DNA from: Nannocystis bainbridge
GTDB lineage: Bacteria > Myxococcota_A > Polyangia > Nannocystales > Nannocystaceae
DNA length: 64,000 nucleotides
NCBI RefSeq assembly: GCF_028368995.1
Contig: NZ_JAQNDL010000001.1
Span: forward strand, 3,968,001 to 4,032,000
Direction: 5' to 3'
Each line of letters begins with the position of its first letter. Position 1 is the first letter of the stretch. Of this stretch, positions 6,676 through 64,000 are shown in pieces. The translations under genes were made by a program, and so were the position numbers. Under the pieces are notes generated by a model. It was not told the origin of the DNA. It searched no databases and was given only the letters and a program-made list of their open reading frames with translations.

Positions 6676-6751
6676 AGCGCCGCGCGCCGGCGATGTGACG
6701 GCCCCCACCGGTCGGCCGCGGGCCCCGGCGATCGGGCACATATACAGCTTC

Positions 6752-10356: not shown

Positions 10357-10594
10357 GGCGACGGACCATAGGCACACGGCGTGCCAAGCCCTCCGGGCAG
10401 GAATTCGCCGCCCTGCGTGAGCGCGTGAGGGTCCCCGCGACACGCACGCCCGGGCGCTCGCACCGTCGCGGTCCTGCTCACGCGCGAGCGAGCGGCACGC
10501 CGGGGTCCACGCGACCCGGCACGACTCCGAGCACCGCATGCGCCGGAGAACTCGCGAGGTGCGCGACTCGAGGACCCATGCCCGGCGATGCTCC

Positions 10595-10664
10595 TGTCCC
10601 GATGAACATGCCCCTTCGAACATGCTCTTTATGGCATGCGCGAAAGAACATGCCCGTCAGGACA
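10595..10664. repeat. Tandem array of five 14-bp TG..CA units
   Basis: TGTCCCGATGAACA TGCCCCTTCGAACA TGCTCTTTATGGCA TGCGCGAAAGAACA TGCCCGTCAGGACA, followed by half unit TGTCTC and the stop at 10671. Confidence 0.9.
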
Positions 10665-10670
10665 TGTCTC

Positions 10671-11150
10671 TCAGTCCGGGAACGCCCGTGAGCACTGGTC
10701 GAGCAGCCACGGCAGCTCGGCGTTGCGGTCGCCCAGCAGCACCGTCACGCACGCCGCGGCGCGCGGGCTGGTCTCGCGCTCGCAGGCGCTCTGGTCGGCC
10801 GCGCGGCTGGCCTGCAGCAGCTTCGCGGCCGCGCCCGCGCTGTCGATGTCGCGGTAGAGCGCGTCGGCGGCGGCGAACATGGCCGAGCAGGCCTGCTTGC
10901 GGTCGGTCGGCAGCGGGTCGGGCAGGCGCGACGCGACCTGGGTCCGCAGCGCCGCCGCCTCGCCGTCGTAGTCGGGCTGGTTGGCGAACCCGCGCGCGTC
11001 GTTGTTGGCGGTGCGGCCCGCGGGCGGGCTCGGCTGCGTCGGCGCCGGCGCGGCGTCCGACGACGTCGGCGAGGCCGAGCGCCCTTCCGGGGCCGGGGTA
11101 CAGGCGGCGAGGAGCACCACCGCGAAGAGAGCGTCCCGCGCGCGAGGCAT
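10671..11150 (-). CDS. hypothetical lipoprotein
   Basis: Lipobox LAAC, Pro-rich linker and a helical domain with four Cys. Confidence 0.7.
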   Translation of the reverse strand: MPRARDALFAVVLLAACTPAPEGRSASPTSSDAAPAPTQPSPPAGRTANNDARGFANQPDYDGEAAALRTQVASRLPDPLPTDRKQACSAMFAAADALYRDIDSAGAAAKLLQASRAADQSACERETSPRAAACVTVLLGDRNAELPWLLDQCSRAFPD

Positions 11151-16309: not shown

Positions 16310-17827
16310 TCACGGGGCGCGCTTGCGCCGGCCCGGGTCGAACCACACCGCCACCTCGATCCCGAGGTTGAGCTCGACCCCGCCGATGGCCGCCAGCGCC
16401 GGCTCCCCCGGGCGCGCCAGCAGCGGCTTGCGCGGCCCGCCTGCGCCTGGCTCCCCCGAGGCCCACAGCTCCGCGCGCGCCCCGGCGCGCACCGCCACGG
16501 CCGGGAGACGCAGCCAGAAGCCCGGCGACAGCCGCAGCCCGCCGCCGAGCAGCGGCCGCGACCCGCCGCGGATCACCGTCGCCTCGCCGCCTGCCAGGCC
16601 CCACCACTCGACCCCGACCAGCCCGACGATCGGCAGCTCGAACGCCCGCACCCGCACGCCGAAGCCCGCCCCCGCCGCCATCCGCACGCGCACCAGCGTG
16701 TGGCGATCGACCGGGGCCACCGTCGCCCGCACCTCGACCGCCGCGATCGCCCCGCGACGCCAGCGCAGGTCGAGCCCGAGCCCGAACATCGCGCCGCGCA
16801 CCCCCGCGAGCGGCCGGTCGAGCCCGAACGAGGCCCCGTCGTAGCGGACCAGGCCGAGCTCGAGCGCGGGCACCCGCGGCTTCGCAGGCGCGGGCAACCG
16901 CGGACAAAGCTGCACCTCGGGACATGTCCTATTAGAAATGTCCTTCGGGACAGGCGACTGCGGCGGTGGTGCGGCGGCGATCGCCGGCGGCACCGGCACG
17001 TCGCGCTGATCGGGGGCGACCGAGTCGTCCTCGATGGCGGCGATCAGCAGCGCCAGCGCGGCCGCCACCGGGCGCGCGGGCGGCTCGTCCTCGGTGTCGA
17101 CGACGCGGAAATAGGCCCGCCCGTCAGCGAGGATCAGCGCCACCTGCACCTGCGTCGGCGACGTCCGCCGCAGGTCGACGAACGCGCGCAGGCCGTCGCC
17201 CACGGGCAGCGCCTCGCCCTGCTGCGCCAGCGCCAGCGACGGCAAGCGCACCCGCAGCGCCCGCGCGACGTCGGCGAACACCAGCCCCTCGACGTGCACC
17301 AGCGCCCCGGCGATCGTCAGCGCCCGCACGCCGACCGGGCCTTCGCTCGCGCCCATCTGCACTGCTGCGGGAGGTCCCGTGCTCGCATCCCTCGGCGCTG
17401 CGTCAGGACTCGAGCTCGCGTCGCTTGGCGGCGAAGGCACGCTCGCTCCCGACATCGCTGGAGGCGACGTGGCCGTATGGCGCTTCGCCCCCCGATCGTC
17501 CCTCGGTGGCGAAGGCTCGCTCGCTCCCGGCGCCGCAGAAGGTGACGCGACTGCGTCACGCTTCGCCCCCTGTTCGTCCCTCGGTGGCGGAGCCACGCTC
17601 GCAGGCGACAGGGCCGCATCACGCTTCGCTCCCTGATCGTCCCTCGGTGACGAACGCTCGCTCGCTCCCGGCGCCGCGTCACGCTTCGCCGCCTGATCGT
17701 CCCTCGGTGGCGAAGGCTCGCTCGCTCCCGGCGCCGCGGACGACAGGGCCGCATCACGCTTCGCCGCCCCGCCAGGCGCGGCGGTCGGGCTCGTCAGCGC
17801 GAGCGCGAGCAGAGGAGCGAAGAGCAC
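16310..17827 (-). CDS. Exported protein with N-terminal repeats and C-terminal beta-barrel-like region
   Basis: Signal peptide, about five AKRDAA..ASEPSPPRDDQ repeats and amphipathic beta strands ending EVAVWF. Confidence 0.65.
   Translation of the reverse strand: MLFAPLLALALTSPTAAPGGAAKRDAALSSAAPGASEPSPPRDDQAAKRDAAPGASERSSPRDDQGAKRDAALSPASVAPPPRDEQGAKRDAVASPSAAPGASEPSPPRDDRGAKRHTATSPPAMSGASVPSPPSDASSSPDAAPRDASTGPPAAVQMGASEGPVGVRALTIAGALVHVEGLVFADVARALRVRLPSLALAQQGEALPVGDGLRAFVDLRRTSPTQVQVALILADGRAYFRVVDTEDEPPARPVAAALALLIAAIEDDSVAPDQRDVPVPPAIAAAPPPQSPVPKDISNRTCPEVQLCPRLPAPAKPRVPALELGLVRYDGASFGLDRPLAGVRGAMFGLGLDLRWRRGAIAAVEVRATVAPVDRHTLVRVRMAAGAGFGVRVRAFELPIVGLVGVEWWGLAGGEATVIRGGSRPLLGGGLRLSPGFWLRLPAVAVRAGARAELWASGEPGAGGPRKPLLARPGEPALAAIGGVELNLGIEVAVWFDPGRRKRAP
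16911..16952. repeat. Three phased 14-bp units (42 bp) inside a CDS linker
   Basis: TGCACCTCGGGACA TGTCCTATTAGAAA TGTCCTTCGGGACA. Confidence 0.8.
17440..17770. repeat. Imperfect 60-78 bp intragenic tandem repeats
   Basis: Recurring tcgtccctcggtggcgaaggctcgctcgctcccggcgccgc and tcacgcttcgc segments. Confidence 0.8.
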
Positions 17828-18138: not shown

Positions 18139-19398
18139 TCAGGGCTGGCCGAGGCAATCGGCGAGCTTCTGATCGCACACGGCAGGCTCGCCCCCTTGCT
18201 CGAGGCACCCCTGGTGCTGCTCGAAGCACTCGAACGGCGGCGGCGGCTCCGGCGGGCCCGCGCACAGCTCCCACTGCGCCTTGCACTCCTCCGGGGCGAT
18301 GCCCTCTTGCAAGCACAGCTCGAGCTCGAGGTCGCAACCATTCGGCGGCGGCGGCTCGCCGAGGCACTCCTGCAGCGCCCCCTCGCACTCCGACGGATCG
18401 ATCCCCTGCTCGAGGCACTGCTGGAAATGCCAGTGGCACTCGTCCGGCGCCGGCGGCTGGCCCAGGCACTCCTGCAATTGCGCCTCGCACTCGGCCGGAT
18501 CGATCCCCTGCTGCAGGCACCCCTCGAATTGCCACTTGCAGTCGTCCGGCGGCGGCGGCGGCGGCTCGCCGAGGCACTCTTGCAGCGCCCCCTCGCACTC
18601 CGACGGATCGATCCCCTGCTCGAGGCACTGCTGGAAATGCCAGTGGCACTCGTCCGGCGCCGGCGGCTGGCCCAGGCACTCCTGCAACTGCGCCTCGCAC
18701 TCGGCCGGATCGATCCCCTGCTGCAGGCACCCCTCGAATTGCCACTTGCAGCCGTCGGGCGGCGGCGGCGGCTCGCCGAGGCACTCTTGCAGCGCCCCCT
18801 CGCACTCCGACGGATCGATCCCCTGCTCGAGGCACTCCTGGAAATGCCAGTGGCACTCGTCCGGCGCCGGCGGCGGCTCGCCGACGCACTGCTGCCATTG
18901 CGCCTCGCACTCGCCCGGGTCGTTGCCCTGCTCGAGGCAGATCTCGAGCTGCAGCTTGCACGCGTCCTCCGCCGGCGGCGGGCACGGGTCCGGCGGGCAC
19001 AGCTGCTCGCAGACCTCGACCGGATGGCCCTGCTCGAGGCACTTCACCAGCTCGCCCTTGCAGTCGGGCGGCGGCTGAACGCACTGCTCGAACTCGGCCT
19101 TGCAGAGCGTCGGGTCGACGCCCGCCTCGAAGCAGAGCTGCAGCTGCCATTCGCAGTCCGGCGGCTCGGGCGCCGGCGGCGGCGCGCAGCCCTCGAGCAG
19201 CGGCGCGCACTCCTCGGCCGTGTGGCCCTGGTCGAGGCAGCCCACGTATTGCTGCTTGCAATCGTCGGGGGCCGGCTCGTCGTCCCCGTCTTTCTCCTCG
19301 AGGTCGACCTTCACGTCGCAGCCGGTGGGGACCAGCACGGTGAACACCGTGCACGAGAACAGGAGGCCGAGTCGGCGCAGCAGGGGCAGTGTAGTCAT
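18139..19398 (-). CDS. Lipoprotein with 11 C-x6-C-x9-C-x6-C repeats
   Basis: Signal ending PTGC, with repeats such as ECHWHFQQCLEQGIDPSECEGALQECLG separated by poly-Pro. Confidence 0.85.
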   Translation of the reverse strand: MTTLPLLRRLGLLFSCTVFTVLVPTGCDVKVDLEEKDGDDEPAPDDCKQQYVGCLDQGHTAEECAPLLEGCAPPPAPEPPDCEWQLQLCFEAGVDPTLCKAEFEQCVQPPPDCKGELVKCLEQGHPVEVCEQLCPPDPCPPPAEDACKLQLEICLEQGNDPGECEAQWQQCVGEPPPAPDECHWHFQECLEQGIDPSECEGALQECLGEPPPPPDGCKWQFEGCLQQGIDPAECEAQLQECLGQPPAPDECHWHFQQCLEQGIDPSECEGALQECLGEPPPPPPDDCKWQFEGCLQQGIDPAECEAQLQECLGQPPAPDECHWHFQQCLEQGIDPSECEGALQECLGEPPPPNGCDLELELCLQEGIAPEECKAQWELCAGPPEPPPPFECFEQHQGCLEQGGEPAVCDQKLADCLGQP

Positions 19399-19481: not shown

Positions 19482-20675
19482 TCACGGCGGCTGACAATCG
19501 GGCGGGCCGATGAACACGTCGTCCACGCTCCAGCCCGCGATCGGCGGCAGCCCCGGCTCCGGGTGGTGATGACAAAAACGAACCATCAGCCCGGGGTTGC
19601 GAAAGGGCGTGATGTCGATCGCGTGCGGCGTCCACTCGGGATCCTCGAACGGCTCGTTCTTGCTCTCGAACACCGCCAACCATTCCTTGCCGGTCCACAC
19701 ATCGACGCGCGCGCTCGCTGGCAGCCGCGGCGGCAGCGGCACGAGCGAGATCTGACTCCAGTAGTGCAGCAGGAGCGGCTCCGGCCCCTCCTGCAGCTCG
19801 ATCGGCGGGCTGGTGAGGCAGGCGTCCATCGGCAACGGCTCGTCCGGCAAGCACCCGCCGATCGCGGCGCCCGCGAGCATGTTGTCGTCGCCGGGGCTGT
19901 GATCCTCGGCCGGATCCTCGAGCCCGTTGAAGGCGCACGCGGAGGGCTTCGCCGGGCCGATCATCCACGGCGGATCGGTCAGCCACGTCCCGGGATCGGT
20001 GAAATCGGCGAACAGGATCGGCAGCCCCGGCTTGCCGAAGCACTGACCCCCGGCGCAAAAATCATCGAAGGTGCAGCCGAGCCCGTCGTCGCACGGCGCG
20101 CCGTCCTCGAGCAGCTCGATCGCACAGTTGCCGGAGGCCGGGTTGCAGAAGCCCTGCTGGCACGCGCCGCCGTGCCCGCTGCAATCGCGCGGCACCCCGG
20201 TGCATGCGCCGGCGATGCATACGTTGGCCTCGGTGCAGAGGTCGCCGTCGTCGCACTTGATGCCCTCGAGCTCGACGTAAGAGCACTGCCCGCCGTCGCA
20301 CTGCGGCTGGCGACACGGCTCGTCCGGACAATCCTCGGCGACCCGGCACTGCAGCGGCGGTCGGCACAGCCCGGCCTCGCACAGCCCGCCGGCGCAGTCC
20401 CACGGCCCGGAGCACTGCTGCCCCGGCCCGCACGGCGGACACACCGGCCCGCCGCAGTCGAGGTCGGTCTCGGCCCCGTTGATGATTCCGTCGAAGCACG
20501 GCTCGACCGGCGCCGGCGGCGGCTCGGAGAGCGCCGTATCTGTCCCCGAGGACATGGTCTCCGAGACGGCCTCGGTGGCGCTGGCGCTGTCGACGAACTC
20601 GTAAGTCACCGGTCGACAGCCCGCGAGCGCCCATCCTGCGAGGATCACCCGCAGCGCACAGAGCCTCATCCTCAT
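19482..20675 (-). CDS. Cys-rich lipoprotein with C-terminal jelly-roll-like domain
   Basis: LAGC lipobox, DGIINGAETDLDCGG and CDDGDLCT repeats, C-terminal GWSVDDVFI. ATGA overlap with the upstream gene. Confidence 0.8.
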   Translation of the reverse strand: MRMRLCALRVILAGWALAGCRPVTYEFVDSASATEAVSETMSSGTDTALSEPPPAPVEPCFDGIINGAETDLDCGGPVCPPCGPGQQCSGPWDCAGGLCEAGLCRPPLQCRVAEDCPDEPCRQPQCDGGQCSYVELEGIKCDDGDLCTEANVCIAGACTGVPRDCSGHGGACQQGFCNPASGNCAIELLEDGAPCDDGLGCTFDDFCAGGQCFGKPGLPILFADFTDPGTWLTDPPWMIGPAKPSACAFNGLEDPAEDHSPGDDNMLAGAAIGGCLPDEPLPMDACLTSPPIELQEGPEPLLLHYWSQISLVPLPPRLPASARVDVWTGKEWLAVFESKNEPFEDPEWTPHAIDITPFRNPGLMVRFCHHHPEPGLPPIAGWSVDDVFIGPPDCQPP

Positions 20676-21688
20676 GGCTCGCCCTCGAGCACGCGGGCCG
20701 CCTGGTGGCGATGCACGCCGTTCGGAAAGTCGGCCGCGTAATCGCGCCAGCAGGCCGCGCGTTGGCCCTCCTCGGCCCGGCGGCACAGGCCCGCGCGCGC
20801 GTCGTCGGCGTAGCGCCCGCGCGGGAATTGGCGCAAGTAACTGCGCCACAGCGCGACCTCCTCGTCGCCGCCGTGGCGCTGGCGCGCGAGCGAGAACAGA
20901 TCGCCGTAGGCCAGGTCGGCCGCGCGCGAGCCCGGCGCGAGCGCGGCGATCTCCCGGTACAGCGCCTCGGCCCCGGCGAGGTCGCCCGCCTCCCAGCTCG
21001 CCTCGGCCTCGGCGTCGAGCCGCCGCAGCCGGTCCGCCCGCGACTCGCCCCGCGCTCGCGCGGCCGCCTTTTCGGGCTGGCCCTTTGGACCTGTCTCTTC
21101 AACCATGGTCTTCGGGTCATGCTCGACGGCCGGCGCGACCTCGACGGGCGCCTCGGGCTCCGGCGCGCTCGCCGGCCGCACCCGCTCGACGCTCTTCGGC
21201 GCGGGCGCGACCTCGTGGCGGGGCGGCGACGCCTGGTCGTGAAACGGCGCCTGCAGGGCCGTGTCGGGCCCGCCCTGCCCGCGGGTCAGCAGCGGGCGAG
21301 CACCGAACGCCAGGCCCGCCACCGCCGCCGCCGCCGCCAACCACATCCACGGCCGCGTCGCCGCTCGCCTGGCCTTCGGGACAGGTACTGGCGGCGGCCC
21401 GGCTGCGCGCACGGCCGCACAATCGGCGTCGATCTCCGCTCGCGCCGCTACCAGCAGCGCCGCGAATTCGGCCTGCTCGCGCGCCGGCACCCGCCCGCTC
21501 GGATCGCCGCGCAGCTGCGCCACCGGGGCCAGCGCGCGCACCTCGACCAGCGCGCCGGCCGGCACCCGCCTCGGGTCGCGCGCGTGGGCCTCGGCGACCA
21601 CCGCGGCGAAGTCGGGCGCGAGCTCGCGACGCATCGCCCGGGCCAGGTCGTCGGCCGCCGCTTCGACGAGGACATCGAGGTCCTTCAC
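20672..21688 (-). CDS. Membrane anti-sigma-like protein with C-terminal TPR
   Basis: GTGA overlap with the sigma gene, one TM (WMWLAAAAAVAGLAF) and TPR-like YLRQFPRG / YAADFPNG. Confidence 0.7.
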   Translation of the reverse strand: MKDLDVLVEAAADDLARAMRRELAPDFAAVVAEAHARDPRRVPAGALVEVRALAPVAQLRGDPSGRVPAREQAEFAALLVAARAEIDADCAAVRAAGPPPVPVPKARRAATRPWMWLAAAAAVAGLAFGARPLLTRGQGGPDTALQAPFHDQASPPRHEVAPAPKSVERVRPASAPEPEAPVEVAPAVEHDPKTMVEETGPKGQPEKAAARARGESRADRLRRLDAEAEASWEAGDLAGAEALYREIAALAPGSRAADLAYGDLFSLARQRHGGDEEVALWRSYLRQFPRGRYADDARAGLCRRAEEGQRAACWRDYAADFPNGVHRHQAARVLEGEP

Positions 21689-25779: not shown

Positions 25780-27126
25780 TTGAGCACCGCCGCCGCACCG
25801 CCCGACCCGTCTTCGGGGCCCTCCGGGTCGGAGCCTTCGACGCGGCGCGGCGGCACCGTCGCGTGGACCGCCTCGACCTACTTCGGCGAGGGCTTGCCGT
25901 GGTCGATCCTCCACCAGGTCGCGGCCGAGTTCTTCACCGCCGCCGGCCTGCCCGCGCGCGAGGTCGGCTTCACCTCGGCGCTGCACTTCACCTCGAGCCT
26001 CAAGTTCGTGTGGAGCCCGATCGTCGACCTGATCGGCACCCTGCGCCAGTGGATCGTCGCCACCCAGTTCGGCCTCGGCGTGCTGATGGCCGTGCTCGCC
26101 GTGTTCGCCCACAACATGGCCTCGGGGACAGGTTCCGGCACCGCCGCCATCTGGGTGGTGCTGATCGTCATCGGCCTGTTCAGCGCCACCCACGACATCG
26201 CCTGCGACGGCTACTACATGACCGCGCTCGGCCGCGCCGACCAGGCCCGCTACACCGGCATTCGCGTGGCCGCCTTCCGCGTGGCGATGCTCGTCGGCTC
26301 GTCCGGCCTGGTGTTCCTCGGCGGTCGCGTCCACTGGCTGGCCGGCTTCGGCGTCGGCGCCGTGCTCATGGTCGGGCTCGCCGTGGCTCACCGCGTGTGG
26401 TTGCCGCAGATCGGCGCCGTGCGCCCGGTCTCGGCCTCCAGCGGCGACAAGGCGGCCGACTGGCGGGCCCGCCTCGCCCACGTGCGCGGCGCCTACTTCA
26501 GCTTCCTGCTGCAGCCGCGGGCCCTCGTCGTCCTGCTGTTCCTCCTCAGCTTCAAGCTGGGCGACGCGCTGATGTTCGGCATGTCGAAGGTGCTGTTCCG
26601 CGAGCTCGGCATCAGCACCCCCGACCGCGGCGTCCTCAACGGCTTCGGCACCGCCGCCAGCATCGCCGGCGCCATGCTCGGCGGGCTATGGGTCGCGCGC
26701 GTCGGCCTGCGGCGCGCGCTGCTGCCGATCGCCCTGATCATGGCCGGCACCTTGCCGCTCTACCTGCTGCTCGCCGCCCCGCGCCTGCCCGCCGACGTCA
26801 TGCTCGGCTTCGGCGCCCCGCTGAGCCTCGCGCACACGCTGTCGCCGCCGCTGTGGCACGTCGGCACCATCCTCGTCATCGAGCAGCTGTGCGGCGGCCT
26901 CGCCACCGCTGCCCAGACGATCTTCATCATGAGCCGCTGCCACCCCGATCACAAGGCGGCTCACTTCGCGTTCGCGACTGCCATCTATTCGCTCGCGCAG
27001 ACCATCTCGGGCACCTACAGCGGCTTCCTCTACGAGGCCCACGGCCCCATCGTCTACTTCTCGATCGCCGCCGTCGCCTGCATCCCCTGCCTGGTGCTGA
27101 TCCCGTTCCTCCGCCAAGATCGTTGA
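25780..27126 (+). CDS. MFS transporter, AmpG-like
   Basis: YFGEGLP, LKFVWSPIVD and SATHDIACDGYY, with about 12 TM segments. Start (TTG) is uncertain. Confidence 0.85.
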   Translation: MSTAAAPPDPSSGPSGSEPSTRRGGTVAWTASTYFGEGLPWSILHQVAAEFFTAAGLPAREVGFTSALHFTSSLKFVWSPIVDLIGTLRQWIVATQFGLGVLMAVLAVFAHNMASGTGSGTAAIWVVLIVIGLFSATHDIACDGYYMTALGRADQARYTGIRVAAFRVAMLVGSSGLVFLGGRVHWLAGFGVGAVLMVGLAVAHRVWLPQIGAVRPVSASSGDKAADWRARLAHVRGAYFSFLLQPRALVVLLFLLSFKLGDALMFGMSKVLFRELGISTPDRGVLNGFGTAASIAGAMLGGLWVARVGLRRALLPIALIMAGTLPLYLLLAAPRLPADVMLGFGAPLSLAHTLSPPLWHVGTILVIEQLCGGLATAAQTIFIMSRCHPDHKAAHFAFATAIYSLAQTISGTYSGFLYEAHGPIVYFSIAAVACIPCLVLIPFLRQDR

Positions 27127-30487: not shown

Positions 30488-33079
30488 TCACACCGCGATC
30501 GCGCGGACCGTCACCAAAGGACCCTCGGGGAACCCTTCGCCCCGCAGGTCGACCTCGCCCTCGATGTGCCACAGGTTCTCCTCTTCGGGGTCGACGAGCA
30601 CCTGCGTGACCCGCCAGCGCTGGTCGGCGACCGCCTCGATGCGGGTGTACTTGGGGAACCGGGCCCCGTGGTCGAAGCGCAGCGTCGGGTACTCGGCGTA
30701 GTAGTCCGCCATCGCCTGGGCGAAGCGCTGCGGGGTCCAGGGGTCGTCGGGGTCGGCGCGCGTGCCGACCGCCGCGACCTCGTAGTCGCGTTCGGCGAGC
30801 GCGCGGACCAGCGCGTGCATCTCCGCGCGCACGCGCGCCGCGAACGCCTTGGGATCGGCCGACAGATCGCGCGGCCCGACGGGCGCGGCTTCGCCCTCGA
30901 CCGCCGGCGGGTGCAGCATGCGCTCCCACTCTTGCAAGAGGCTGGTGTCGACGTACTCGAACATCGCCCGCAAGAAGCCGATCACGTCGTGCACCTCGTC
31001 GGTCTTGGCCGCGTCGGGCACCGTCTGCACCAGCAGCTTGTAGGCCTGCATCAAGTAGCGCAGCAGCACGCCCTCGCTGCGCTGCAGCCCGTACTCCTTG
31101 ACGTAGTCGTTGAACGCGACGTAGCGCTCGACCATGTCGCGGACCACCGACTTCGGGCGGATGTTCTCTTGCCCGACCCACGGGTGGATCGCGGTGAACT
31201 CGTTGAAGGTGTCGTAGATGAAGTCGGCCAGCGGCTTCGGGTACGACACCTTCTCGAGCTCGGCCATGCGCTCCTCGTACTCGACGCCGGCCGCCTTGAG
31301 CTCGCCGATCTTCTCCGAGCGGGCGCGGTGCTCCTGCGCCTGCAGCACCACCTGCGGGTTCTCGAGCAGCGACTCGACCAGCGACACCACGTCGAGCGCG
31401 TAGGTCGGCGAGTCCAGCGGCACGCGGCCGAGCGTGTCGAGCAGGTACAGCGACAGCGTGTGGTGGAGCGAGAAGTCCTTCTGCAGGTGCTCGTCGAGCC
31501 GGACTGCCCGGCCGCCGCCGCCGTCCTTGCGCGCGTCGAGCGGCACCAGCTTGACGATGCCCGCCTTGCGCAGCGCCCGGAACAGCGTCGCCGCCTCGCG
31601 CCGGTGGCGGGTCTTGGCCCGCCCCTCGTCGTGCGCCGCCGCGATCAGCTCGATCAGCCGGCGGTAGCCGCCGCCCCACGCGTTGGTGTTGGCCGGCGAC
31701 TGGATCAGGCTCAAGATCATCCCGAACGACACCACGAACCGCGACTGCAGCGGCTCCGGTTCGCGGTCGATGAGCTTCTCGAAGGTCGACTTGTCCCAGG
31801 GGACATATCCCCGCTCGGGCGGCTGCCTGCGCACGAACTTCTTCTTCTTCGTGTCGGCCGCCGCCTTGGCCTCGAGCTTCTTGTTCTCGATCACGTGCTC
31901 CGGCGCCTGACAGACCACGAAGCCCTGGTCGTCGAAGCCCTTGCGCCCGGCCCGCCCGGCGATCTGCTTGAAGTCGCGGGCCCCGAGGATCCGCGTCTGC
32001 TCGCCGTCGTACTTGCAGAGCTTGGTGAACAGCACCGTGCGGATCGGGATGTTGACCCCGACCCCGAGCGTATCGGTGCCGCAGATCACCCGCAGCTTGC
32101 CCTGCTGCGCCAGCTTCTCGACCAGCAGGCGGTACTTCGGCAGCAGCCCCGCGTGGTGGACCCCGACGCCGTGCTTGAGGTAGCCCTGGATCTCCTTGCC
32201 GTACGGCGTGTCGAAGCGGAACCCCGCCATCGCCTCGGCGATCGCCGCCTTCTCCTCGCGCGAGCACAGGTTCGTGCTCATCAGGTTCTGCGCCTCCTCG
32301 GCGGCCTCGCGCTGGGTGAAGCTGACGATGTAGATCGGCGCGCGCCCGCGGTCGAGCAGGTAGCCGATCGTCTCGTGCAGCGGCGTCTCGCGGTACTCGA
32401 AGTCGAGCGGCACCGGCCGGACCGCCGAGCGGACCACCGCGACGTCCTGCTTCGTCAGCCGCTTGAGCCCCTCCTCGACCTTGGTCGTGTCGCCGAGCGT
32501 CGCCGACATCAAAAGGAAGGTCGTGTACGGCAGCGACAGCAGCGGGATCTGCCACGCCATCCCGCGGTCGCGGTCGCCGTAGTAGTGGAACTCGTCGAGC
32601 ACCGCGTCGTCGACCGGCGCCGCCCGCCCGTCGCGCAGCGCCATGTTGGCGAGGATCTCCGCGGTGCAGCACAGGATCGGCGCGTCGCGGTTGACGCTCG
32701 CGTCGCCGGTCATCATGCCGACGCGGTCGGGCCCGAAGTCGCGGCACAGGGCGAAGAACTTCTCGCTGACCAGCGCCTTGATCGGGCTCGTGTACACGCT
32801 CCGGCGCCGGCGGGCCACCGCCGCCAGGTGCATCGCCGTCGCCACCAGCGACTTGCCCGAGCCGGTCGGCGTGTTGAGCACCACGTGCTTGCCGCCGAGG
32901 ATCTCGAGGATCGCCTCCTCCTGCGCCGGGTACAGCTCGAGCCCCGTCTCGGTGACCCAATCGAGGAAGCACTCGAGGATCGCGTCCGACGAGGTGCTCT
33001 TGTCGGGGTGCTCGATCAGCTTGGCCGCGAACTCCCGCAGCGTGCGGGACCCGGCGCCGATGTCGTCGACCGCGCTCAC
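30488..33079 (-). CDS. Ski2-like DEAD/DEAH helicase with C-terminal DUF3516-like region
   Basis: PTGSGKS, SPIKAL, DEFH, SAT, HHAG and [12 protein letters not shown] overlap with the upstream gene. Confidence 0.9.
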
Positions 33080-40856: not shown

Positions 40857-41939
40857 GTGACCCACTTTTTCTTCTGCGTCTGCCAGCTCGGCGCCGAGCC
40901 GGCCGTCAAGGTCGAGCTCGCCACGCTGCGCCCCGAGCTCCGCTTCGCCTACAGCCGGCCGGGCCTCGTCACCTTCAAGTCGCCCGGGCCGGTGGCCCCC
41001 GACGCCCCGCTGCCGGCCGTGTTCGTGCGCGCCTTCGGGGCCTCGCTCGGCCCGGCCGACAGCCCCGAGCAGGTGTTCACAATGCTCTCCGGGACATGTC
41101 CCGAAGGCCAGCCAATTCGCCTGCACGTGTGGGAGCGCGACGTCACCCGCCCCGGCGAGGAGCCGCCCGGCTTCCGCTACGGCCCGCGCGCCGCCGAGGT
41201 CCGCGCCGCGCTGACGGCCGCCTGGCCCGCGCAGCGCCATCCGCTGCTCGCGGGCGAGGTCGCCGAGCCTGGCGATCGCGTGCTCGACGTCATCGTCGCC
41301 GAGGGCGAGCCGTGGTGGATCGGCCATCACGTCCACGGCCCCGGCCACTCCCCGTTGCCCGGCGGGCGGATCGCCGTCGACATGCCGCCCGAGGCCCCGT
41401 CGCGCGCCTATCGCAAGCTCGAGGAGGCGCTGATCTGGTCCGGCGCCCCGGTGCGCGCCGGCGACGTCGCGGTCGAGATCGGCAGCGCCCCCGGCGGCGC
41501 CAGTTATGCCCTGCTGCGCCGCGGCGTCACCGTCTACGGCATCGACCCGGCGCTGATGGACCCGGTCGTGCTCGATTACCGCGGCGAAAGTCCGGCCGAC
41601 AATCGCTTCATTCACTTGCACCGCCCGATGAGCCTGGTCCAGCGCGCCGACCTCCCGGCCGCGCTGCACTGGGTGCTGATGGACGTGAACCTCGCCCCGC
41701 AGGTCGCCCTCATCACCGCCCGCCGCCTCGCCGCCCGGCCTCGCCACGCGCTTCACGGTGTTCTCCTCACTCTCAAGCTCGACGACTGGCGCGCCGTCCG
41801 GCACGTGCCCCGCCTGCTCGCCTCGATCAGCGCCATGGGCATGGAAGAGGTCAAGGCCACGCAGCTGCCCAGCAATCGCATGGAGCTGTTCGTCTGCGGC
41901 CTGACCCGCGCCGGCCTCCAGCGCCTCACCGGCCACTGA
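40857..41939 (+). CDS. RlmM/FtsJ-like rRNA 2'-O-methyltransferase
   Basis: APSRAYRKLEEA, EIGSAPGG, IDPA and TLKL. Confidence 0.82.
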   Translation: MTHFFFCVCQLGAEPAVKVELATLRPELRFAYSRPGLVTFKSPGPVAPDAPLPAVFVRAFGASLGPADSPEQVFTMLSGTCPEGQPIRLHVWERDVTRPGEEPPGFRYGPRAAEVRAALTAAWPAQRHPLLAGEVAEPGDRVLDVIVAEGEPWWIGHHVHGPGHSPLPGGRIAVDMPPEAPSRAYRKLEEALIWSGAPVRAGDVAVEIGSAPGGASYALLRRGVTVYGIDPALMDPVVLDYRGESPADNRFIHLHRPMSLVQRADLPAALHWVLMDVNLAPQVALITARRLAARPRHALHGVLLTLKLDDWRAVRHVPRLLASISAMGMEEVKATQLPSNRMELFVCGLTRAGLQRLTGH

Positions 41940-56591: not shown

Positions 56592-56633
56592 TGTCTCTCG
56601 CGACATGTCCTCCATGACATGTCGTGATGGACA
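56592..56633. repeat. Three perfect TGTC-N6-GACA units filling a convergent gap
   Basis: TGTCTCTCGCGACA TGTCCTCCATGACA TGTCGTGATGGACA. Confidence 0.9.
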
Positions 56634-56635
56634 GC

Positions 56636-57043
56636 TCAAACAAGCTTCTCGAGCAGCCCGCGCAGCTGGGCCTGTTCGCCGCCGCTCAGGCGGCCCAGCC
56701 GGGCCGCGAAGGCGTCGGCGAGCAGCGTCAGCCCGCGCTGCATCACCTTGCGCCCGGCCGGCGTGACCACCAGCCGGTGCTTGCGCAGGTCGGCCGCGTC
56801 GATCTCCCGCTTGAGGAAGCCCGCCGCCTCGAGCCGCTTCACGTACAGCGTCATGGTCGGCTTCGGCATCACCAGCGCCACCGCCAGCTCGGCCGGGTAC
56901 GGGTGCTCGTCGACCTCCGACAGCACGAACAGCTCCTTGACCTCGAGGCCCAGCGCACCCACCTCGGCCGCCACCGTGGTGATCACGGACATCAGCAAAC
57001 GGTGATTGAGCGACCACAGCCTGGCGGCGTCGATTTTCGTCAT
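56636..57043 (-). CDS. MarR family regulator
   Basis: PKPTMT..VKRLE..G, DLRK..VTPAG. Confidence 0.9.
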   Translation of the reverse strand: MTKIDAARLWSLNHRLLMSVITTVAAEVGALGLEVKELFVLSEVDEHPYPAELAVALVMPKPTMTLYVKRLEAAGFLKREIDAADLRKHRLVVTPAGRKVMQRGLTLLADAFAARLGRLSGGEQAQLRGLLEKLV

Positions 57044-59828: not shown

Positions 59829-60710
59829 TCACGCGGGCTCCCAGGCTTCGGCGTCGAGGTCGGGAAAGTAAACCTCGCAGTTGCCTGCGGGGATCCGGCT
59901 GACCCGCGCGAAGCCGAGAGAGTCGGTGAAGCCGCGCCACTCGACCCCGTCCGGTGCCACGATCCGGTAGCGCTGACCCGGGATCCCCTCGCCGTCCTCG
60001 CCGACCAGCTGGACCCCCACCCAGTGCGTCGGCGGCCCCGCTTCCACCGCCGTGGACCGGCCCTCGTTCCGCGGCTCGCCCTCGGCTTTTTTGCCCGGCG
60101 GCCCGACGACCGGCGCCTTCCAGGCTTCGGCTACTTCGCCAGGCGGCCCGGCGATCGTCGCCGCGGGCTCCCAGGCTTCGCCGTCGAGGTCGGGAAAGAA
60201 CACCTGGCAGATGCCGGCCGGGATTCGGTTCACTCGCGCGACCCCGAGGGAGTCGGTGAAGCCGCGCCACTCGACCTCGTCCGGCGTGATGATCCGGTAG
60301 CGCTGCCCTGGGATCCCTTCGCCGTCCTCGCCGATCAGCTGGATCTCCACCCAGTGCGTCGGCAGCCCCGCCTCCACCGCCGTGAACCCGTCCTCGTTCG
60401 GCTGCTCGCCCTCGGCCTCCTCGCCCGGCGGCCCGATGATCGGCGCCTCGGTCGCCCCGCCGCGCGTGAGCACCAGGCGGCCCGCCACCAGCGCTCCCGC
60501 CAGGCGGCTCACCACGTCCTCGCCGGCGAAGAACTCGAGCTCGCCCGCCAGTCGCCGCAGCACCCACGCGTCGCGCGGGTCGGCGAGCAGCTGCGTCACG
60601 AAGGCCGCCGCCGCTCGCACGTCCGCGAACTCCAGCCGCGTCCCCGCCACCGGCCCTTCGCCGAACAGACGAACCTCGAGGTCGGCGACGCGGAGCGAGC
60701 GGAAGTCCAC
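59829..60710 (-). CDS. hypothetical protein with internal duplicated ~90-aa beta domain
   Basis: Two copies of THWV..QL.GEDGEGIPGQRYRI..PD..WRGFTDSLG..FPDLD.EAWEPA, about 330 bp apart. Confidence 0.75.
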   Translation of the reverse strand: MDFRSLRVADLEVRLFGEGPVAGTRLEFADVRAAAAFVTQLLADPRDAWVLRRLAGELEFFAGEDVVSRLAGALVAGRLVLTRGGATEAPIIGPPGEEAEGEQPNEDGFTAVEAGLPTHWVEIQLIGEDGEGIPGQRYRIITPDEVEWRGFTDSLGVARVNRIPAGICQVFFPDLDGEAWEPAATIAGPPGEVAEAWKAPVVGPPGKKAEGEPRNEGRSTAVEAGPPTHWVGVQLVGEDGEGIPGQRYRIVAPDGVEWRGFTDSLGFARVSRIPAGNCEVYFPDLDAEAWEPA

Positions 60711-60760
60711 GGTGGCGCCCACGCTATCGCAGCCGCCCTGGCCCAGCAAGGCGCGCCCGC

Positions 60761-60906
60761 GCGCGCCCGTCCGCGCGCCTCGCAAGCACCTGTCTCTCGG
60801 GACATCTCATCGCCACGCCGATCCTCCGCCGGGGGACAGGCGCGCGCGGGCGCGCCCGTCCGCCCCTCGAATCAACCTGTCTCTCGGGACATCTCATTGC
60901 CACGCC
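60761..60906. repeat. Imperfect ~58-bp direct repeat, each copy containing TGTCTCTCGGGACA
   Basis: Copies at 60761-60819 and 60850-60906. Confidence 0.8.
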
Positions 60907-60945: not shown

Positions 60946-62622
60946 GTGCGCCGCCGCAGCTTCCTCGCCGGGACCGCCGCGCTCGCGTGCGGTCGGCCGC
61001 GCAGGGTCGAGCCTGGCTTCGGCGAGACGCGCGACACCGTCGCCGCCCTGCTCGACGCCTGGCGCGAGAAGATGCCCGTCGTCGGCCTCAGCATCGCCCT
61101 CGTCGATCGCGGCGAGCTCGCCTGGGCCACCGGCTTCGGCATGGCCGACCGCGAGGCGCGGCAGCCTGCCACCGCCGACACCGTCTACGCGATCGGCTCG
61201 CTCACCAAGATCTACACCGCCCTCGCGGCCGTGCGCGCCGCGCAGGCCGGCCGGCTCGACCTCGAGGCCCCGCTGCAGCGCCACCTCCCGCAGTTGCGCG
61301 CGCTCGGCAGCGACGCCATCCGCTTGCGTCAGCTCCTCTGTCACCGCTCCGGCCTCGTCTCCGACTGGCACCGCGGCAGCCTCGGCGCGCGCCCGCCCGA
61401 CTGGCGACGCGTCGCCGACGAGGTCGCCGAGGAGCCCCTGCTCGCCGCGCCCGACAGCTGGTACGCCTACTCCAACGTCGGCTACACCCTCATGGGACAT
61501 GTCCTCGACGACATGTCCGATAAACCATATCAAGAGCACGTCCTCGACGTCGCCCGCCTCGCGCTCGGCGGCTCCGGCCTGGGCTTCGACCCGCCCCCCG
61601 GCATGGCCGCCAGCTACTGCGCCGGCCAGCGCGAGCACGAGCCGCGCCTGCGCCTGCAGCCCGCCGCCGGCATGTTCGGCAGCGTCCTCGATCTCGTCCC
61701 GCTGCTGCGCTGGCTGCTCGCCGGTGAGGGCGCCGCCGCGGCCATGCTCACCCCGCAGTCGGCCGGCCCGCTCGATTTCGACGAGCGCTGGGGCCTCGGC
61801 CTCGCCCTGCAGCACGTCGGCCTCGCCCACGCCGGCCGCGTCGCCTGGCACACCGGCCGCACCTTCGGCCACCGCGCCGCCCTGTTCGCCCTGCCCGATC
61901 GCGGCCTCGGCGTCGCCGTGCTCGCCAACTTCCGCGAGGCCGGCGGCGTCGAGGACCTCGCCGCCTTCGCCCTCCAGACCGCCCTGCTCGAGCGCGACGG
62001 CCTCGACCTCCCGCCCAGCGCCGGCGACGCCGAAGCCCGCCCGCGCGCCCCCTTCGACCCCGCCGCGCTGCAGGCCCACGTCGGCCGCTACGCCCACGAG
62101 TTCGACGTCGTCCGCCTCGCCGTCGAGCGCGGCGGCCTGGTCTCGCGCGCCGAGATCGGCAAGACCGCGCTGATCCCCGCGGCGGGCGGCGGCTTCCACA
62201 GCGCCGACAACCCCGACGCTCACGTCACCATCGCCGAGCGCGCCGGCCACCACGTCGTCACCAGCACCGTGCGCGGCGTCGAGACCCGGATCGGTGTGCG
62301 CTGTCCCTTCGAACATGTCCCCGAGGACTGGCTCCGCCGCGTCGGCCGCTACACCGTCGACGCCGGCCCCGACGAGGTCGTCGCCTTCAAGGCCGCCCAC
62401 CTCACCGCCGTCGAGGGCGGCCTCGAGCTCCGCCTCGAGCTGCCGCAAGCGTTCGCCACCAGCTCGACCCTGGCCCGCTACGCGCTCATCGTCACCGGCC
62501 CACACGAGGCCCGGACCTTCGGTGTCGGCCGCGGCAAGGGCCAGCGCGTCGCGGCCTTCGACGGCCCCGAGGGCCCCGAGCTGGCATGGGCCGGCTACCG
62601 CCTGCTCCGCAGCGACGCCTGA
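60946..62622 (+). CDS. Serine hydrolase (beta-lactamase class C-like), Tat lipoprotein
   Basis: RRRSFL..ALAC, SxxK (SLTK), YSN and HTG. Confidence 0.88.
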   Translation: MRRRSFLAGTAALACGRPRRVEPGFGETRDTVAALLDAWREKMPVVGLSIALVDRGELAWATGFGMADREARQPATADTVYAIGSLTKIYTALAAVRAAQAGRLDLEAPLQRHLPQLRALGSDAIRLRQLLCHRSGLVSDWHRGSLGARPPDWRRVADEVAEEPLLAAPDSWYAYSNVGYTLMGHVLDDMSDKPYQEHVLDVARLALGGSGLGFDPPPGMAASYCAGQREHEPRLRLQPAAGMFGSVLDLVPLLRWLLAGEGAAAAMLTPQSAGPLDFDERWGLGLALQHVGLAHAGRVAWHTGRTFGHRAALFALPDRGLGVAVLANFREAGGVEDLAAFALQTALLERDGLDLPPSAGDAEARPRAPFDPAALQAHVGRYAHEFDVVRLAVERGGLVSRAEIGKTALIPAAGGGFHSADNPDAHVTIAERAGHHVVTSTVRGVETRIGVRCPFEHVPEDWLRRVGRYTVDAGPDEVVAFKAAHLTAVEGGLELRLELPQAFATSSTLARYALIVTGPHEARTFGVGRGKGQRVAAFDGPEGPELAWAGYRLLRSDA

Positions 62623-62853
62623 GGCCGGGCGGCAGAGTCAGTGTCTCGGAATCACATGTCCCAAGGGACAGCCAATCTCGAAGCGCAAGCGCGTCGCTCG
62701 ACAGGTCGGCGCCGCTCCTCGGTCCAGCGCTGGGCCACGCGCGGCGGTTCCGCAGCCCGGCTACCGCCTGCTCCGTAGCGACGCCTGACGCCGGGCGGCA
62801 GCGCCCGACGCCTCCGAATCACATGTCCCGAGTGACAGCCAACCTCGAAGCGC
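62591..62853. repeat. ~96-bp imperfect direct repeat of the gene 3' end plus 14-bp motif
   Basis: 62591-62686 versus 62757-62853 (ccggctaccgcctgctccg..gaatcacatgtccc..gacagccaa..tcgaagcgc). Confidence 0.85.
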
Positions 62854-62899
62854 GAGAACCTCTCTCGCGCCAGCAATCAACCTGTCTCAAGAAACAGCC

Positions 62900-64000
62900 T
62901 CAAGCCCGCGCCCGTCGCCGCCGCAACCCGACCAGCATGAGCCCCGCGAGCCAGCCCCCGCTCCCCGCTCCGCCGCCCGAGCAGGCGCACCCGGGCACGA
63001 TCAGCCCGTCCGCGGGGTTCGTCGTCGCCCCGTCCTCCGAAGTCCCCGCCGTCGTCCCGCTGCCCGGCTCACCCGTCGAGCCGCCCGTCGTCGGCCCGCC
63101 CGTCGTCGGGCCCCCCGTCGTCGGCTCGTCCGGCCCGCCCGTGCTGTCCTCGCTCGCCGGCCACGCCGTGCAGCGGTCGGGGTCCCACGAATCACCGAGC
63201 TCGTCGATCTCACACACGTACGGCGCGCCCACGCAGACCGCGAGCGCCGGCGAATCCTGCGTCAGCGTCTGCGCCCCGAGCTGATCGACCAGCGTATCCC
63301 CGTGACAGAGCTCCGACCCCGGGGCCGTCTCGCCGGTCACCAGGTTGCGCAGCACCACCTGCGCACAGAACGGCCCCGTGTTGCGCGAGCGGAAATCGAA
63401 GCTCGACGTCACGAACCTCTCCTCGACCACGAACCCGCCGACCACCAGCGTCGCGCTCACCATCGACGCGGCCTCGTCGCTCGCGCCCGGCACCTGCCCC
63501 TCGAAGTCGACGCGCAGCCGCCCCGTCCACTGCAGCGGCACGCACTCACCCTCGGCGAAGCCCACCGATCCCCCGCCGCTGCCGCACCCCCCGGAGAACG
63601 CCGGGAACGCCCCGTCGCAGCACACCAGGTTGTCGAGCGTCAGCACCTCGGTGACCTCCGCCGCCTCCTTGCTGCTCACCTCCGGCGCGACCAGCGGCGG
63701 CATCACCCCGCTGCCCGTGCTCACCTCGAACTCGAACGGCTCGAACTCGAGGCCGCAGGTCGGATCGCCCGGCGTCGCCTCGACGTTGTGGATCGTGCCG
63801 GCCACCACATACGTGCTGTCGGCCGCCAGCGGCCCCGCCGGCCGCCAGCCGAGCAGCCCGTCGATCCCCGTCGACTCGAGCTGCCCCGCCACCGGCATCC
63901 CGCCCAGCGTCACCTCCACCGTCATCACGTCGAGTGGCACCGGCACCTGCGACGGCCCCGACACCTTCAGCAAGATCATCGCGTCGAGCGGCAGCTCGCG
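62900..64000 (-). CDS. Ig-like surface protein with MYXO-CTERM-type tail, 5' end outside window
   Basis: WRPAGPLAADSTY Ig-like segment, PTTGG repeats and GCAC-TM-RRRRAR. Confidence 0.8.
   Translation of the reverse strand, partial: RELPLDAMILLKVSGPSQVPVPLDVMTVEVTLGGMPVAGQLESTGIDGLLGWRPAGPLAADSTYVVAGTIHNVEATPGDPTCGLEFEPFEFEVSTGSGVMPPLVAPEVSSKEAAEVTEVLTLDNLVCCDGAFPAFSGGCGSGGGSVGFAEGECVPLQWTGRLRVDFEGQVPGASDEAASMVSATLVVGGFVVEERFVTSSFDFRSRNTGPFCAQVVLRNLVTGETAPGSELCHGDTLVDQLGAQTLTQDSPALAVCVGAPYVCEIDELGDSWDPDRCTAWPASEDSTGGPDEPTTGGPTTGGPTTGGSTGEPGSGTTAGTSEDGATTNPADGLIVPGCACSGGGAGSGGWLAGLMLVGLRRRRARA

Follow-up and report, generated by a model that had tools for sequence, protein, structure and literature searches.

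In this work, we focus on a stretch of 64,000 nucleotides of the genome of the soil myxobacterium Nannocystis bainbridge (the window; C1:3968001-4032000 of G000, a genome of 11.05 Mb with 71.5% G+C), and particularly on a short array of palindromic units written into one of its genes, which encodes a beta-lactamase-family serine hydrolase. The hydrolase site gives a glimpse of an extensive repeat system that is specific to the genus and apparently undescribed, and together with its siblings in other genes it is a genuine member of a genus-wide family of arrays whose units follow one another every 14 bp. The in-gene copies arose by base substitution on pre-existing codons rather than by insertion, at the expense of preferred codons and in part of the encoded residues. 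Between Nannocystis species they stay at fixed positions, unlike other A/T-ending codons, which turn over. Judging from the sequence, we give about half of our confidence to the view that it is the motif itself, as nucleic acid, that is under constraint, probably through cooperative protein binding to the arrays.

The hydrolase locus comprises the following features, with positions counted from the first letter of the window.

60946-62622, plus strand: host gene, beta-lactamase-family serine hydrolase of 558 amino acids (PF00144, E = 3e-53, residues 43-339)
61495-61536: main array, three units GGACATGTCCTCGA / CGACATGTCCGATA / AACCATATCAAGAG in 14-bp phase, 36.7 bits in total
62297-62324: second in-gene array of the hydrolase, in its C-terminal part, two units, 18.4 bits
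60786-60813 and 60873-60900: two two-unit arrays in the divergent intergenic region upstream of the hydrolase start, 17.6 and 19.6 bits

The fraction of codons ending in G or C (GC3) is 0.950 in this gene and 0.947 in the long open reading frames (ORFs) of the genome. The main array covers residues 184-197, on the helix after YSN, and the codons around 61486-61530 read ATG GGA CAT GTC CTC GAC GAC ATG TCC GAT AAA CCA TAT CAA GAG CAC. In particular, GACATGTCC is found at 61496 and again at 61510, at a spacing of exactly 14 bp, and a weaker third unit, AACCATATCAAGAG, follows 14 bp on, the three units scoring 17.2, 16.4 and 3.1 bits. Seven of the 14 codons that overlap the array end in A or T, against 21 of 544 (3.9%) in the rest of the gene (binomial P = 3.5e-7). 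The original prediction, which was made from the letters alone, had claimed that this helix encodes phased units with A/T-ending codons and carries no insertion, and both statements are confirmed: the alignment of the hydrolase with the PDB chains 7spn_A and 2qmi_A is ungapped through YSNVGYTLMGHVLDDMSDKPYQEHV, the array region, and because it is ungapped against these solved homologues the array adds no residues. The array is present at the same position in all five same-genus orthologues (81-88% amino-acid identity), among which GGGACATGTCCT is invariant, rare GGA and CAT codons included, and is followed by residues that differ between them (DDMSDK, SNISPK, DNMSTK, DNISPR, DNMSPK, DNMSKK). 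At the second array, at 62297, four relatives encode EGP where N. bainbridge has FEH, and the DNA stays motif-like (GAA GGA CCT GTC CCC), so that at this site the residues change between species and the motif with its A/T-ending codons is kept.

The end of the same gene carries a local tandem duplication that includes an array. Within 62586-62860, a second copy of the last 30 or so bases of the gene, of its stop and of the downstream sequence with the array lies about 170 bp on, the sequence being GGCTACCGCCTGCTCCG.AGCGACGCCTGA, then CACATGTCCC..G.GACAGCCAA.CTCGAAGCGC.

Genome-wide, an iterated weight matrix defines the unit of the family as a 10-bp palindrome, GGACATGTCC, with four weakly specified spacer bases, which makes a 14-bp repeat in which CATG is the most invariant part (0.85-0.93 per position). 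ACATGT has 4234 copies and GACATGTC has 2237, where a hand estimate from base composition gives about 580 and 75, and pairs of ACATGT fall at spacings of 14 bp (557), 28 bp (172), 42 bp (141), 56 bp (69) and 70 bp (30), with single digits at nearby spacings. At a cut-off of 16 bits the genome has 7566 two-unit matches, where a shuffle that preserves codon-phase composition has 9, and the de-duplicated total comes to 3796 arrays with 11605 units. Most of these arrays have two or three units, with a shoulder at five to six and few above seven; even unit numbers are not favoured, odd ones being as common. The exact two-unit pattern is found in all 10 other same-genus genomes (1 to 147 matches each, the low counts reflecting fragmented assemblies), while 19 of the 20 genomes of other genera have no match and the remaining one has two. 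The viral contigs searched for this two-unit pattern gave five single matches and no contig with several, which we judged unenriched without a computed expectation.

The arrays of 4, 5, 6, 7 and 8 units number 375, 300, 229, 89 and 17, with a sharp fall past seven, and the shoulder at five to six units is strongest between convergent genes, where the counts run 95, 103, 97 and 25; six units make 84 bp, or about eight helical turns. Some long arrays (for example C3:1347900-1348053 and C3:1206248) have exact higher-order periods of 28 or 42 bp, and such blocks of two or three repeated units indicate that arrays grow by local duplication. The tetranucleotide CATG was considered as a signature of restriction avoidance or methylation and was not retained as such: it is not depleted in the genome (observed-to-expected ratio, O/E, of 1.24, with 7794 of its 39940 copies inside arrays), and a link to a methylase is neither supported nor excluded. 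Among other tetranucleotides, CTAG is strongly rare (1509 copies against about 7649 expected, O/E 0.20), and AATT (O/E 3.09), TATA (2.19) and TTAA (1.91) are over-represented.

The excess of arrays within genes goes far beyond what the encoded proteins and their codon usage would give. Genes were taken from our own codon-usage caller (8108 genes, 83% coding) rather than from a standard annotation, and in-gene arrays were called robust when a same-frame coding signal was found on both sides without a stop, a strict classifier under which 39% of random positions count as coding. In 6916 confident genes, trimmed at both ends, we found 1511 two-unit matches, against 87, 94 and 92 in three synonymous-codon shuffles that keep every protein sequence and the gene-wise codon usage, which amounts to an excess of about 16-fold; at 24 bits, there were 347 against 9, 4 and 4. 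Within coding sequences (CDS) we counted 304 pairs of CATG at a spacing of 14 and 6-20 at nearby spacings other than multiples of 3; after synonymous shuffling, 41 pairs remained at a spacing of 14. As a period of 14 nucleotides is not a multiple of 3, it cannot come from a peptide repeat, an explanation that is ruled out by this period together with the use of all three frames, and the 41 pairs left after shuffling indicate that the arrays have also marked the protein sequences. Indeed, the C of CATG falls at codon positions 1, 2 and 3 in 215, 146 and 260 strong units, so that in-gene arrays often use the frames in which rare codons, CAT or ACA TGT, are required. GC3 was 0.67 in 463 robust arrays, against a host-gene mean of 0.948, and climbed with distance from the array, with 0.84, 0.88 and 0.90 for the first three flanking codons and about 0.97 at the fifth, the flank values being somewhat inflated since the flanks were chosen for coding signal. 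The GC3 and frame figures, like the paralogue and inter-array-distance figures below, come from a list that still held 106 overlapping duplicates, by which the paralogue counts are little affected.

To place these arrays on their proteins, host proteins were compared with their paralogues in the same genome, an array being counted as covered if the high-scoring segment pair (HSP) reached 10 residues beyond both of its sides. Among 196 covered in-gene arrays, 144 were ungapped, 32 were gapped over less than 30%, 15 over 30-70% and only 5 over at least 70%, as expected of insertions; the in-gene arrays are therefore overlays on existing sequence. Gaps took up a fraction of 0.079 within arrays and of 0.061 within flanks. 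When all 492 in-gene arrays are taken before de-duplication, 226 have hosts without a paralogue match, 198 are covered and 14 are ambiguous, and not one of the 492 showed the split HSPs flanking the array that an insertion would give. There is also no excess of in-gene arrays with 3 or 6 units. At the amino-acid level, arrays are 0.29 identical to paralogues and their flanks 0.38, and for orthologues the values are 0.65-0.80 in arrays against 0.87-0.90 elsewhere, so that the arrays sit in, or create, less conserved stretches.

The persistence of the arrays was followed in syntenic DNA from four relatives for the window and in about 260 kb aligned to each of two relatives. Where a relative aligns, most window arrays, genic or intergenic, have a counterpart array at the corresponding position. 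In the window genes, A/T third bases are identical in the relative in 64 of 87 codon-by-genome comparisons within arrays, against 475 of 1638 outside; over the 260 kb and two relatives, 72% of 170 are kept in arrays against 29% of 6639 elsewhere, and, where the amino acid is the same, 92 of 111 against 1797 of 5744. This comparison was controlled for ascertainment by taking the third positions at which both relatives share an A or a T, with arrays defined from the relatives' sequences: N. bainbridge then keeps the base at 34 of 37 positions in arrays against 657 of 1012 elsewhere (Fisher P = 3e-4). A match of at least 14 bits in register is kept in 39 of 47 array-by-relative comparisons (26 arrays), and nucleotide identity in arrays is 0.85, against an aligned average of 0.90; the array sequence turns over while the motif stays. 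Intergenic arrays often differ between relatives in unit number and spacers, and for those that could be aligned to a relative (22 of 111) the identity is 0.72-0.91 in the cores and 0.49-0.64 in the spacers.

The other in-gene sites of the window are the following.

31787-31814: two-unit array in the DEAD/DUF3516 helicase gene 30488-33079 (minus strand), 16.9 bits
41078-41105: array with the strong unit GGACATGTCCCGAA (17.5 bits) in gene 40857-41939 (plus strand), 18.1 bits
26112-26139: two-unit array in the major facilitator superfamily (MFS) transporter gene 25780-27126 (plus strand; Pfam MFS_1), 17.5 bits
3629-3656: sub-threshold site, good unit GAACCTGTCCCCGG (10.2 bits) with a weak neighbour, 11.2 bits against a cut-off of 14-16

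The helicase array lies on a conserved peptide containing GYVPWD, which has the same length in 22 orthologues from other genera. N. bainbridge and its relative G002 encode its first residues as GGA TAT GTC, and the relatives G001 and G010 as GGG TAT GTC. This codon string is absent from the N. bainbridge-type form, GGA TAT GTC, in all 22 orthologues outside the genus, most of which have GGC TAC GTG (GGA is found in 3, TAT in 7 and both in 1). At 41078, ACA ATG CTC TCC GGG ACA TGT CC is kept in all four relatives, the rare ACA and TGT codons too, and the MFS transporter array is partly kept, at 14 bits or more in G010 and below 14 bits in G001. The site at 3629-3656 falls, according to Pfam domains, in the HATPase_c part of a sensor kinase/cyclase gene (2513-5068, plus strand), and its codons GAA CCT ... 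AAA TCA are identical in G001 and G010.

These results bear on the remaining claims of the original prediction. It had seen the hydrolase pattern at four more sites, and those at 31787, 41078 and 62297 hold, while the one at 3629 stays below threshold. It placed the motif in conserved protein cores, which is right for the hydrolase and the helicase; genome-wide, the arrays lie in the somewhat less conserved stretches described above. The two outcomes that would have spoken against it, namely a GC3 around the motifs equal to the background and the same codons in orthologues from motif-free genomes, were not observed, since GC3 drops in the array and about four codons on each side before returning to background, and the helicase codons of the other genera differ. 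Its proposal of selection for the DNA motif within genes, or of a process converting sequence toward it, is supported as a pair of alternatives by the excess over synonymous shuffles, the 14-bp phase, the lack of insertion, the low GC3 and the retention of A/T-ending codons, the two alternatives not being separated by these data.

The distribution of the arrays over the genome is strongly uneven, with the following densities.

Convergent intergenic regions: 2.32 arrays per kb
Tandem intergenic regions: 1.00 per kb
Divergent intergenic regions: 0.48 per kb
Called CDS: 0.13 per kb

The arrays are also longest between convergent genes, where they are densest. An array lies within 100 nucleotides after the stop in 2163 of the 8108 genes, and within 100 nucleotides before the start in 606; many begin a few bases past the stop codon and fill short convergent spacers. 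A third of the arrays (1194 of 3796) are in called CDS, 485 of them robust. The in-gene arrays do not look like displaced gene-end arrays, a possibility that is ruled out by their lack of enrichment near stop codons, and no clear pattern was found between in-gene array density and gene length or codon adaptation. The arrays as a promoter operator array of a regulon were likewise rejected, given that their lowest intergenic density is in divergent regions and that genes with an array before the start are fewer than those with one after the stop. An intrinsic terminator was also considered: hairpins are possible, but the U-tract is missing, as no T-rich tract was found after 610 oriented arrays (downstream T of 0.10-0.19, for a baseline of about 0.14).

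If the constraint does act on the nucleic acid itself, it would hold the motif in place, and the most likely reader would be a putative sequence-specific dimeric protein on duplex DNA, stacking cooperatively in the 14-bp register, in which three units, or 42 bp, make about four helical turns. Recognition of a specific sequence, rather than pairing alone, is suggested by the higher identity of cores than of spacers, the weak complementarity of adjacent units, the lack of a preference for even unit numbers and the near symmetry of the cores between strands. More weakly, the main role of the arrays may be sought at gene ends, because they sit just after stops and are densest and longest between convergent genes; this would mean a roadblock, topological or chromosome-structuring function, of which the in-gene arrays would be additional sites. 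In its fullest form, which we hold tentatively and somewhat short of an even chance, this proposal is that a lineage-specific factor reads GGACATGTCC units in a strict 14-bp register and polymerises on them, with selection presenting arrays at thousands of places, mostly at gene ends and also within genes. If true, it would amount to a bacterial code of a new kind, genome-wide and either architectural or marking transcription boundaries, in which the array requirement overrides a GC3 of 0.95 and even alters residues in conserved enzyme helices.

Several observations weigh against a DNA-binding factor at selected sites. The density order from convergent through tandem and divergent regions to CDS would also fit a selfish or drive-fed element after purifying selection, and retention at fixed positions can also stem from a repair or conversion bias that restores near-motif sequence. 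The cross-species counts come from some 26-30 arrays and from related genomes and are thus not independent, so that their P values overstate independence. In-gene arrays are evenly spread along genes, without enrichment near the stop, and so do not simply replace missing gene-end arrays, and inter-array distances are over-dispersed, or clustered (coefficient of variation of 1.54), which argues against a regularly spaced structural role. On the RNA side, the hydrolase array has a predicted hairpin of -16.3 kcal/mol (z = -2.53). With units oriented by the upstream gene, the cores differ little between strands, apart from a small sense-strand excess of G at position 2 (472 units against 378 mirror variants, P = 7e-4), the direction that G-U pairing or transcription-linked mutation would give. 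Finally, the run search for RNA evidence found no isolate RNA-seq; all of its matches were contigs of metagenomes or metatranscriptomes from soil, rhizosphere, wetland and roots, and most of these had small shares of the sampled words.

Among the alternatives, a molecular drive without cellular function is the one that we take most seriously, as a real though rather unlikely possibility. Here, a biased process would push near-motif sequence to the motif everywhere, the candidates being uptake bias with recombination, biased mismatch or short-patch repair, ectopic gene conversion and hairpin-templated template switching, and purifying selection on proteins and promoters would shape which arrays survive. 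The order of densities is then simply the expected tolerance of the compartments, and the even spread along genes, the lack of any trend with the codon adaptation of the host gene and the position of in-gene arrays in less conserved stretches, as described for uptake sequences in the available excerpt of PMC2817400, all agree with it. So do the 28- and 42-bp higher-order repeats, which suggest local duplication or conversion, and the fact that units at lags 1-3 are slightly more alike than expected. However, a drive must account for an exact 14-bp phase made in genes without insertions or deletions, and, if it worked by hairpin-templated copying, it would predict a strong complementarity of neighbouring units, which is not observed. 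The rare-codon frames are nearly as frequent as the cheap one, where uptake sequences follow preferred codons (PMC2817400, in the same excerpt), and the conservation of HIP1 (highly iterated palindrome 1) sites of cyanobacteria, a pattern that recurs in the Nannocystis arrays, was taken as evidence of selection over replenishment in the part of PMC5861425 available. A role at the RNA level, like that proposed for repetitive extragenic palindromic (REP) sequences, seems to us doubtful and less probable than a drive. Neighbouring palindromic units would pair into transcript hairpins, giving exonuclease protection or bidirectional termination at 3' ends, and in-gene copies would serve as processing, pausing or stability elements. 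The position of arrays mainly just past stops and between convergent genes would suit such a role, as would a palindromic unit that reads alike on either transcript, the stable predicted hairpins (that of the hydrolase, and one at 56595-56650 with -22.9 kcal/mol and z = -5.45) and the slight sense-strand bias to G/U-compatible variants. Against it, adjacent-unit complementarity is only marginally above that of random family units (0.49 against 0.46, and 0.61 against 0.56), the core sequence is conserved rather than pairing alone, odd and even unit numbers are equally common, and the arrays lack a U-tract downstream; two of the hydrolase orthologues have ACATATCC as unit 2, for which unit 1 does not compensate, and Rfam has no family match anywhere in the window.

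The two other explanations concern the in-gene copies, and we regard both as very improbable. The in-frame insertion of a mobile palindromic element of the Rickettsia type would be helped by the fact that three units make 42 bp, or 14 codons, and thus preserve the frame; it is contradicted by the mostly ungapped paralogue alignments with their 5 insertion-like cases and no split HSPs, by the ungapped hydrolase alignments to 7spn and 2qmi, by the constant length of the helicase peptide in other genera and by the lack of an excess of 3- or 6-unit in-gene arrays. More improbable still, to the point of being negligible, is that the pattern came about by chance, or as a side effect of the amino-acid sequences and of errors in gene calling. 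It is true that the unit frame GAC ATG TCC uses preferred codons only and that the 41 CATG pairs at spacing 14 that survive synonymous shuffling compare with about 15 at other non-multiples of 3, but 1511 matches were observed in genes against about 91 expected, in a 14-bp phase, the codons of the hydrolase site depart strongly from those of its gene (by the binomial test above), the host genes have Pfam domains and the robust set needs a same-frame coding signal on both sides of the array.

The window also contains arrays at gene ends, of which the following three illustrate the intergenic part of the family.

56601-56642: three-unit array between convergent genes, 32.4 bits, classed as partial since it overlaps a called gene end
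1264-1361: seven-unit array at a gene end, 77.7 bits, matched by arrays of five units in G001 and in G010
10590-10673: six-unit array at a gene end, 72.8 bits, matched at this position by arrays of 4 and 5 units in G001 and G010

The first of these lies in the usual setting of the family and has three to four units in all four relatives, with conserved cores and free spacers. Two further 3-unit arrays, at 16906-16947 and 21087-21128, lie inside the called ORFs 16310-17362 and 20672-21688 (minus strand), which have a weak coding signal beside the arrays, so that these gene calls or their extents are doubtful.

Other repeats of the window are of different kinds. An intergenic repeat of 60-78 bp (...CGCTTCGCC.CCTGATCGTCCCTCGGTGGCGAAGGCTCGCTCGCTCCCGGCGCCGC; families D10 and D11), unrelated to the 14-bp family, occurs four to five times at 17419-17775, and seven tandem coding repeats of 102-108 bp (families D1 and D2) lie at 18143-19074, in gene 18139-19398 (minus strand). 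An internal duplication of 287 bp (87% identical, 330 bp apart; D7) at 59832-60448, in gene 59829-60749 (minus strand), yields a repeated domain of about 110 residues. Tandem paralogous genes lie at 6695-7879 and 8154-9374, about 80% identical over most of their length and offset by 1495 bp (D5, D6 and D12). The secreted-looking protein at 62900-64000 (minus strand) ends with a linker rich in Thr, Gly and Pro, a Gly-rich stretch with Cys, a hydrophobic segment and RRRRARA, which together resemble a MYXO-CTERM sorting tail.

In the arrays, a DNA pattern beats codon choice, which with 95% G/C-ending codons is close to the most constrained possible, and sometimes the amino acid, at several hundred sites, and is kept across species, so that they offer a clean natural readout of a second, non-protein information layer in coding DNA. 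They also make a tractable system in which to ask whether such motifs, HIP1 and uptake sequences among them, are kept by function or by drive, because the family is large (about 11600 units), restricted to one genus among those searched, strictly phased and undescribed in the literature searched. On the practical side, gene finders, codon-optimisation schemes and detectors of horizontal transfer will misread array stretches, and the heterologous expression of Nannocystis biosynthetic genes carries the arrays along or loses them.

The literature searched on Nannocystis repeats and palindromes, and on REP sequences in myxobacteria and Myxococcota, does not describe such arrays. No bacterial motif GGACATGTCC was found among the matches listed, which concerned p53 and other eukaryotic topics, and it is by coincidence that the unit literally matches the consensus of the p53 half-site. 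Among known systems, the arrays can first be set beside operator arrays. The MetJ metboxes and the Fur hexamer arrays are short palindromic units set head to tail in a fixed register, with 2-6 per site, on which dimers contact one another. These operators are found at tens of promoter sites, whereas Nannocystis has some 3800 arrays, which are intergenically sparsest in divergent regions. Rickettsia palindromic elements, for their part, are inserted in frame in protein-coding genes and add residues. They are insertions, unlike the in-gene arrays of Nannocystis, which are overlays without a change of length.

Uptake sequences (the uptake signal sequences, USS, of Pasteurellaceae and the DNA uptake sequences, DUS, of Neisseria) resemble the arrays in having hundreds to thousands of copies, many of them in genes, and paired DUS act as terminators downstream of genes. 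They are neither palindromic nor phased in arrays, unlike the Nannocystis motif. In the available excerpt of PMC2817400, their in-gene copies shift the peptide content and favour poorly conserved residues and preferred-codon frames. The residues under Nannocystis arrays are also less conserved, yet their rare-codon frames (215 and 146 units) stand against 260 in the cheap frame. REP sequences and bacterial interspersed mosaic elements (BIMEs) are high-copy palindromic repeats for which roles in supercoiling, termination and mRNA stability have been proposed, in the parts available of PMC2817692 and PMC3733652, the latter giving GTAG or CGTC as the REP end tag. Like the arrays, they are genus-specific, form regularly spaced composite arrays and lie downstream of genes, and the enrichment of the Nannocystis arrays between convergent genes and at gene ends agrees with this. 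REP and BIME sequences are, however, extragenic, 20-40 bp long and associated with a Y1 transposase, whereas a third of the arrays are in called genes and their unit is of 10 + 4 bp, with no tag. Indeed, a search for the REP-associated tyrosine transposase (RAYT; Y1 transposase, PF01797) found none in the N. bainbridge genome, which is 90.5% complete, a control search having matched 6 of 14 named genomes.

A further close likeness is to HIP1, GCGATCGC, which in cyanobacteria is over-represented 15- to 300-fold and conserved within and between ORFs, from which selection was inferred (PMC5861425, in the excerpt available), and for which a role in chromosome structure has been proposed in the accessible part of PMC4390886. 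Both are short palindromes, hyper-abundant in one lineage, present in and between ORFs and conserved beyond codon usage: over-representation in Nannocystis is many-fold as well (7566 two-unit matches against 9, and the 2237 copies of GACATGTC), and its sites are conserved across genomes in and between ORFs, over about 260 kb and two to four relatives. HIP1 differs in consisting of single 8-mers rather than 14-bp-phased arrays and is not reported to concentrate after stops; it also has cognate orphan methyltransferases, and its sequence, GCGATCGC, and its lineage, the cyanobacteria, are not those of the Nannocystis motif. The Nannocystis arrays are thus an analogue of HIP1 and not a member of its class. 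More generally, the array family shares features with HIP1, with uptake sequences and with REP and BIME sequences and is a member of none of them, the new element being the strict 14-bp phasing of its units in arrays of 2-7.

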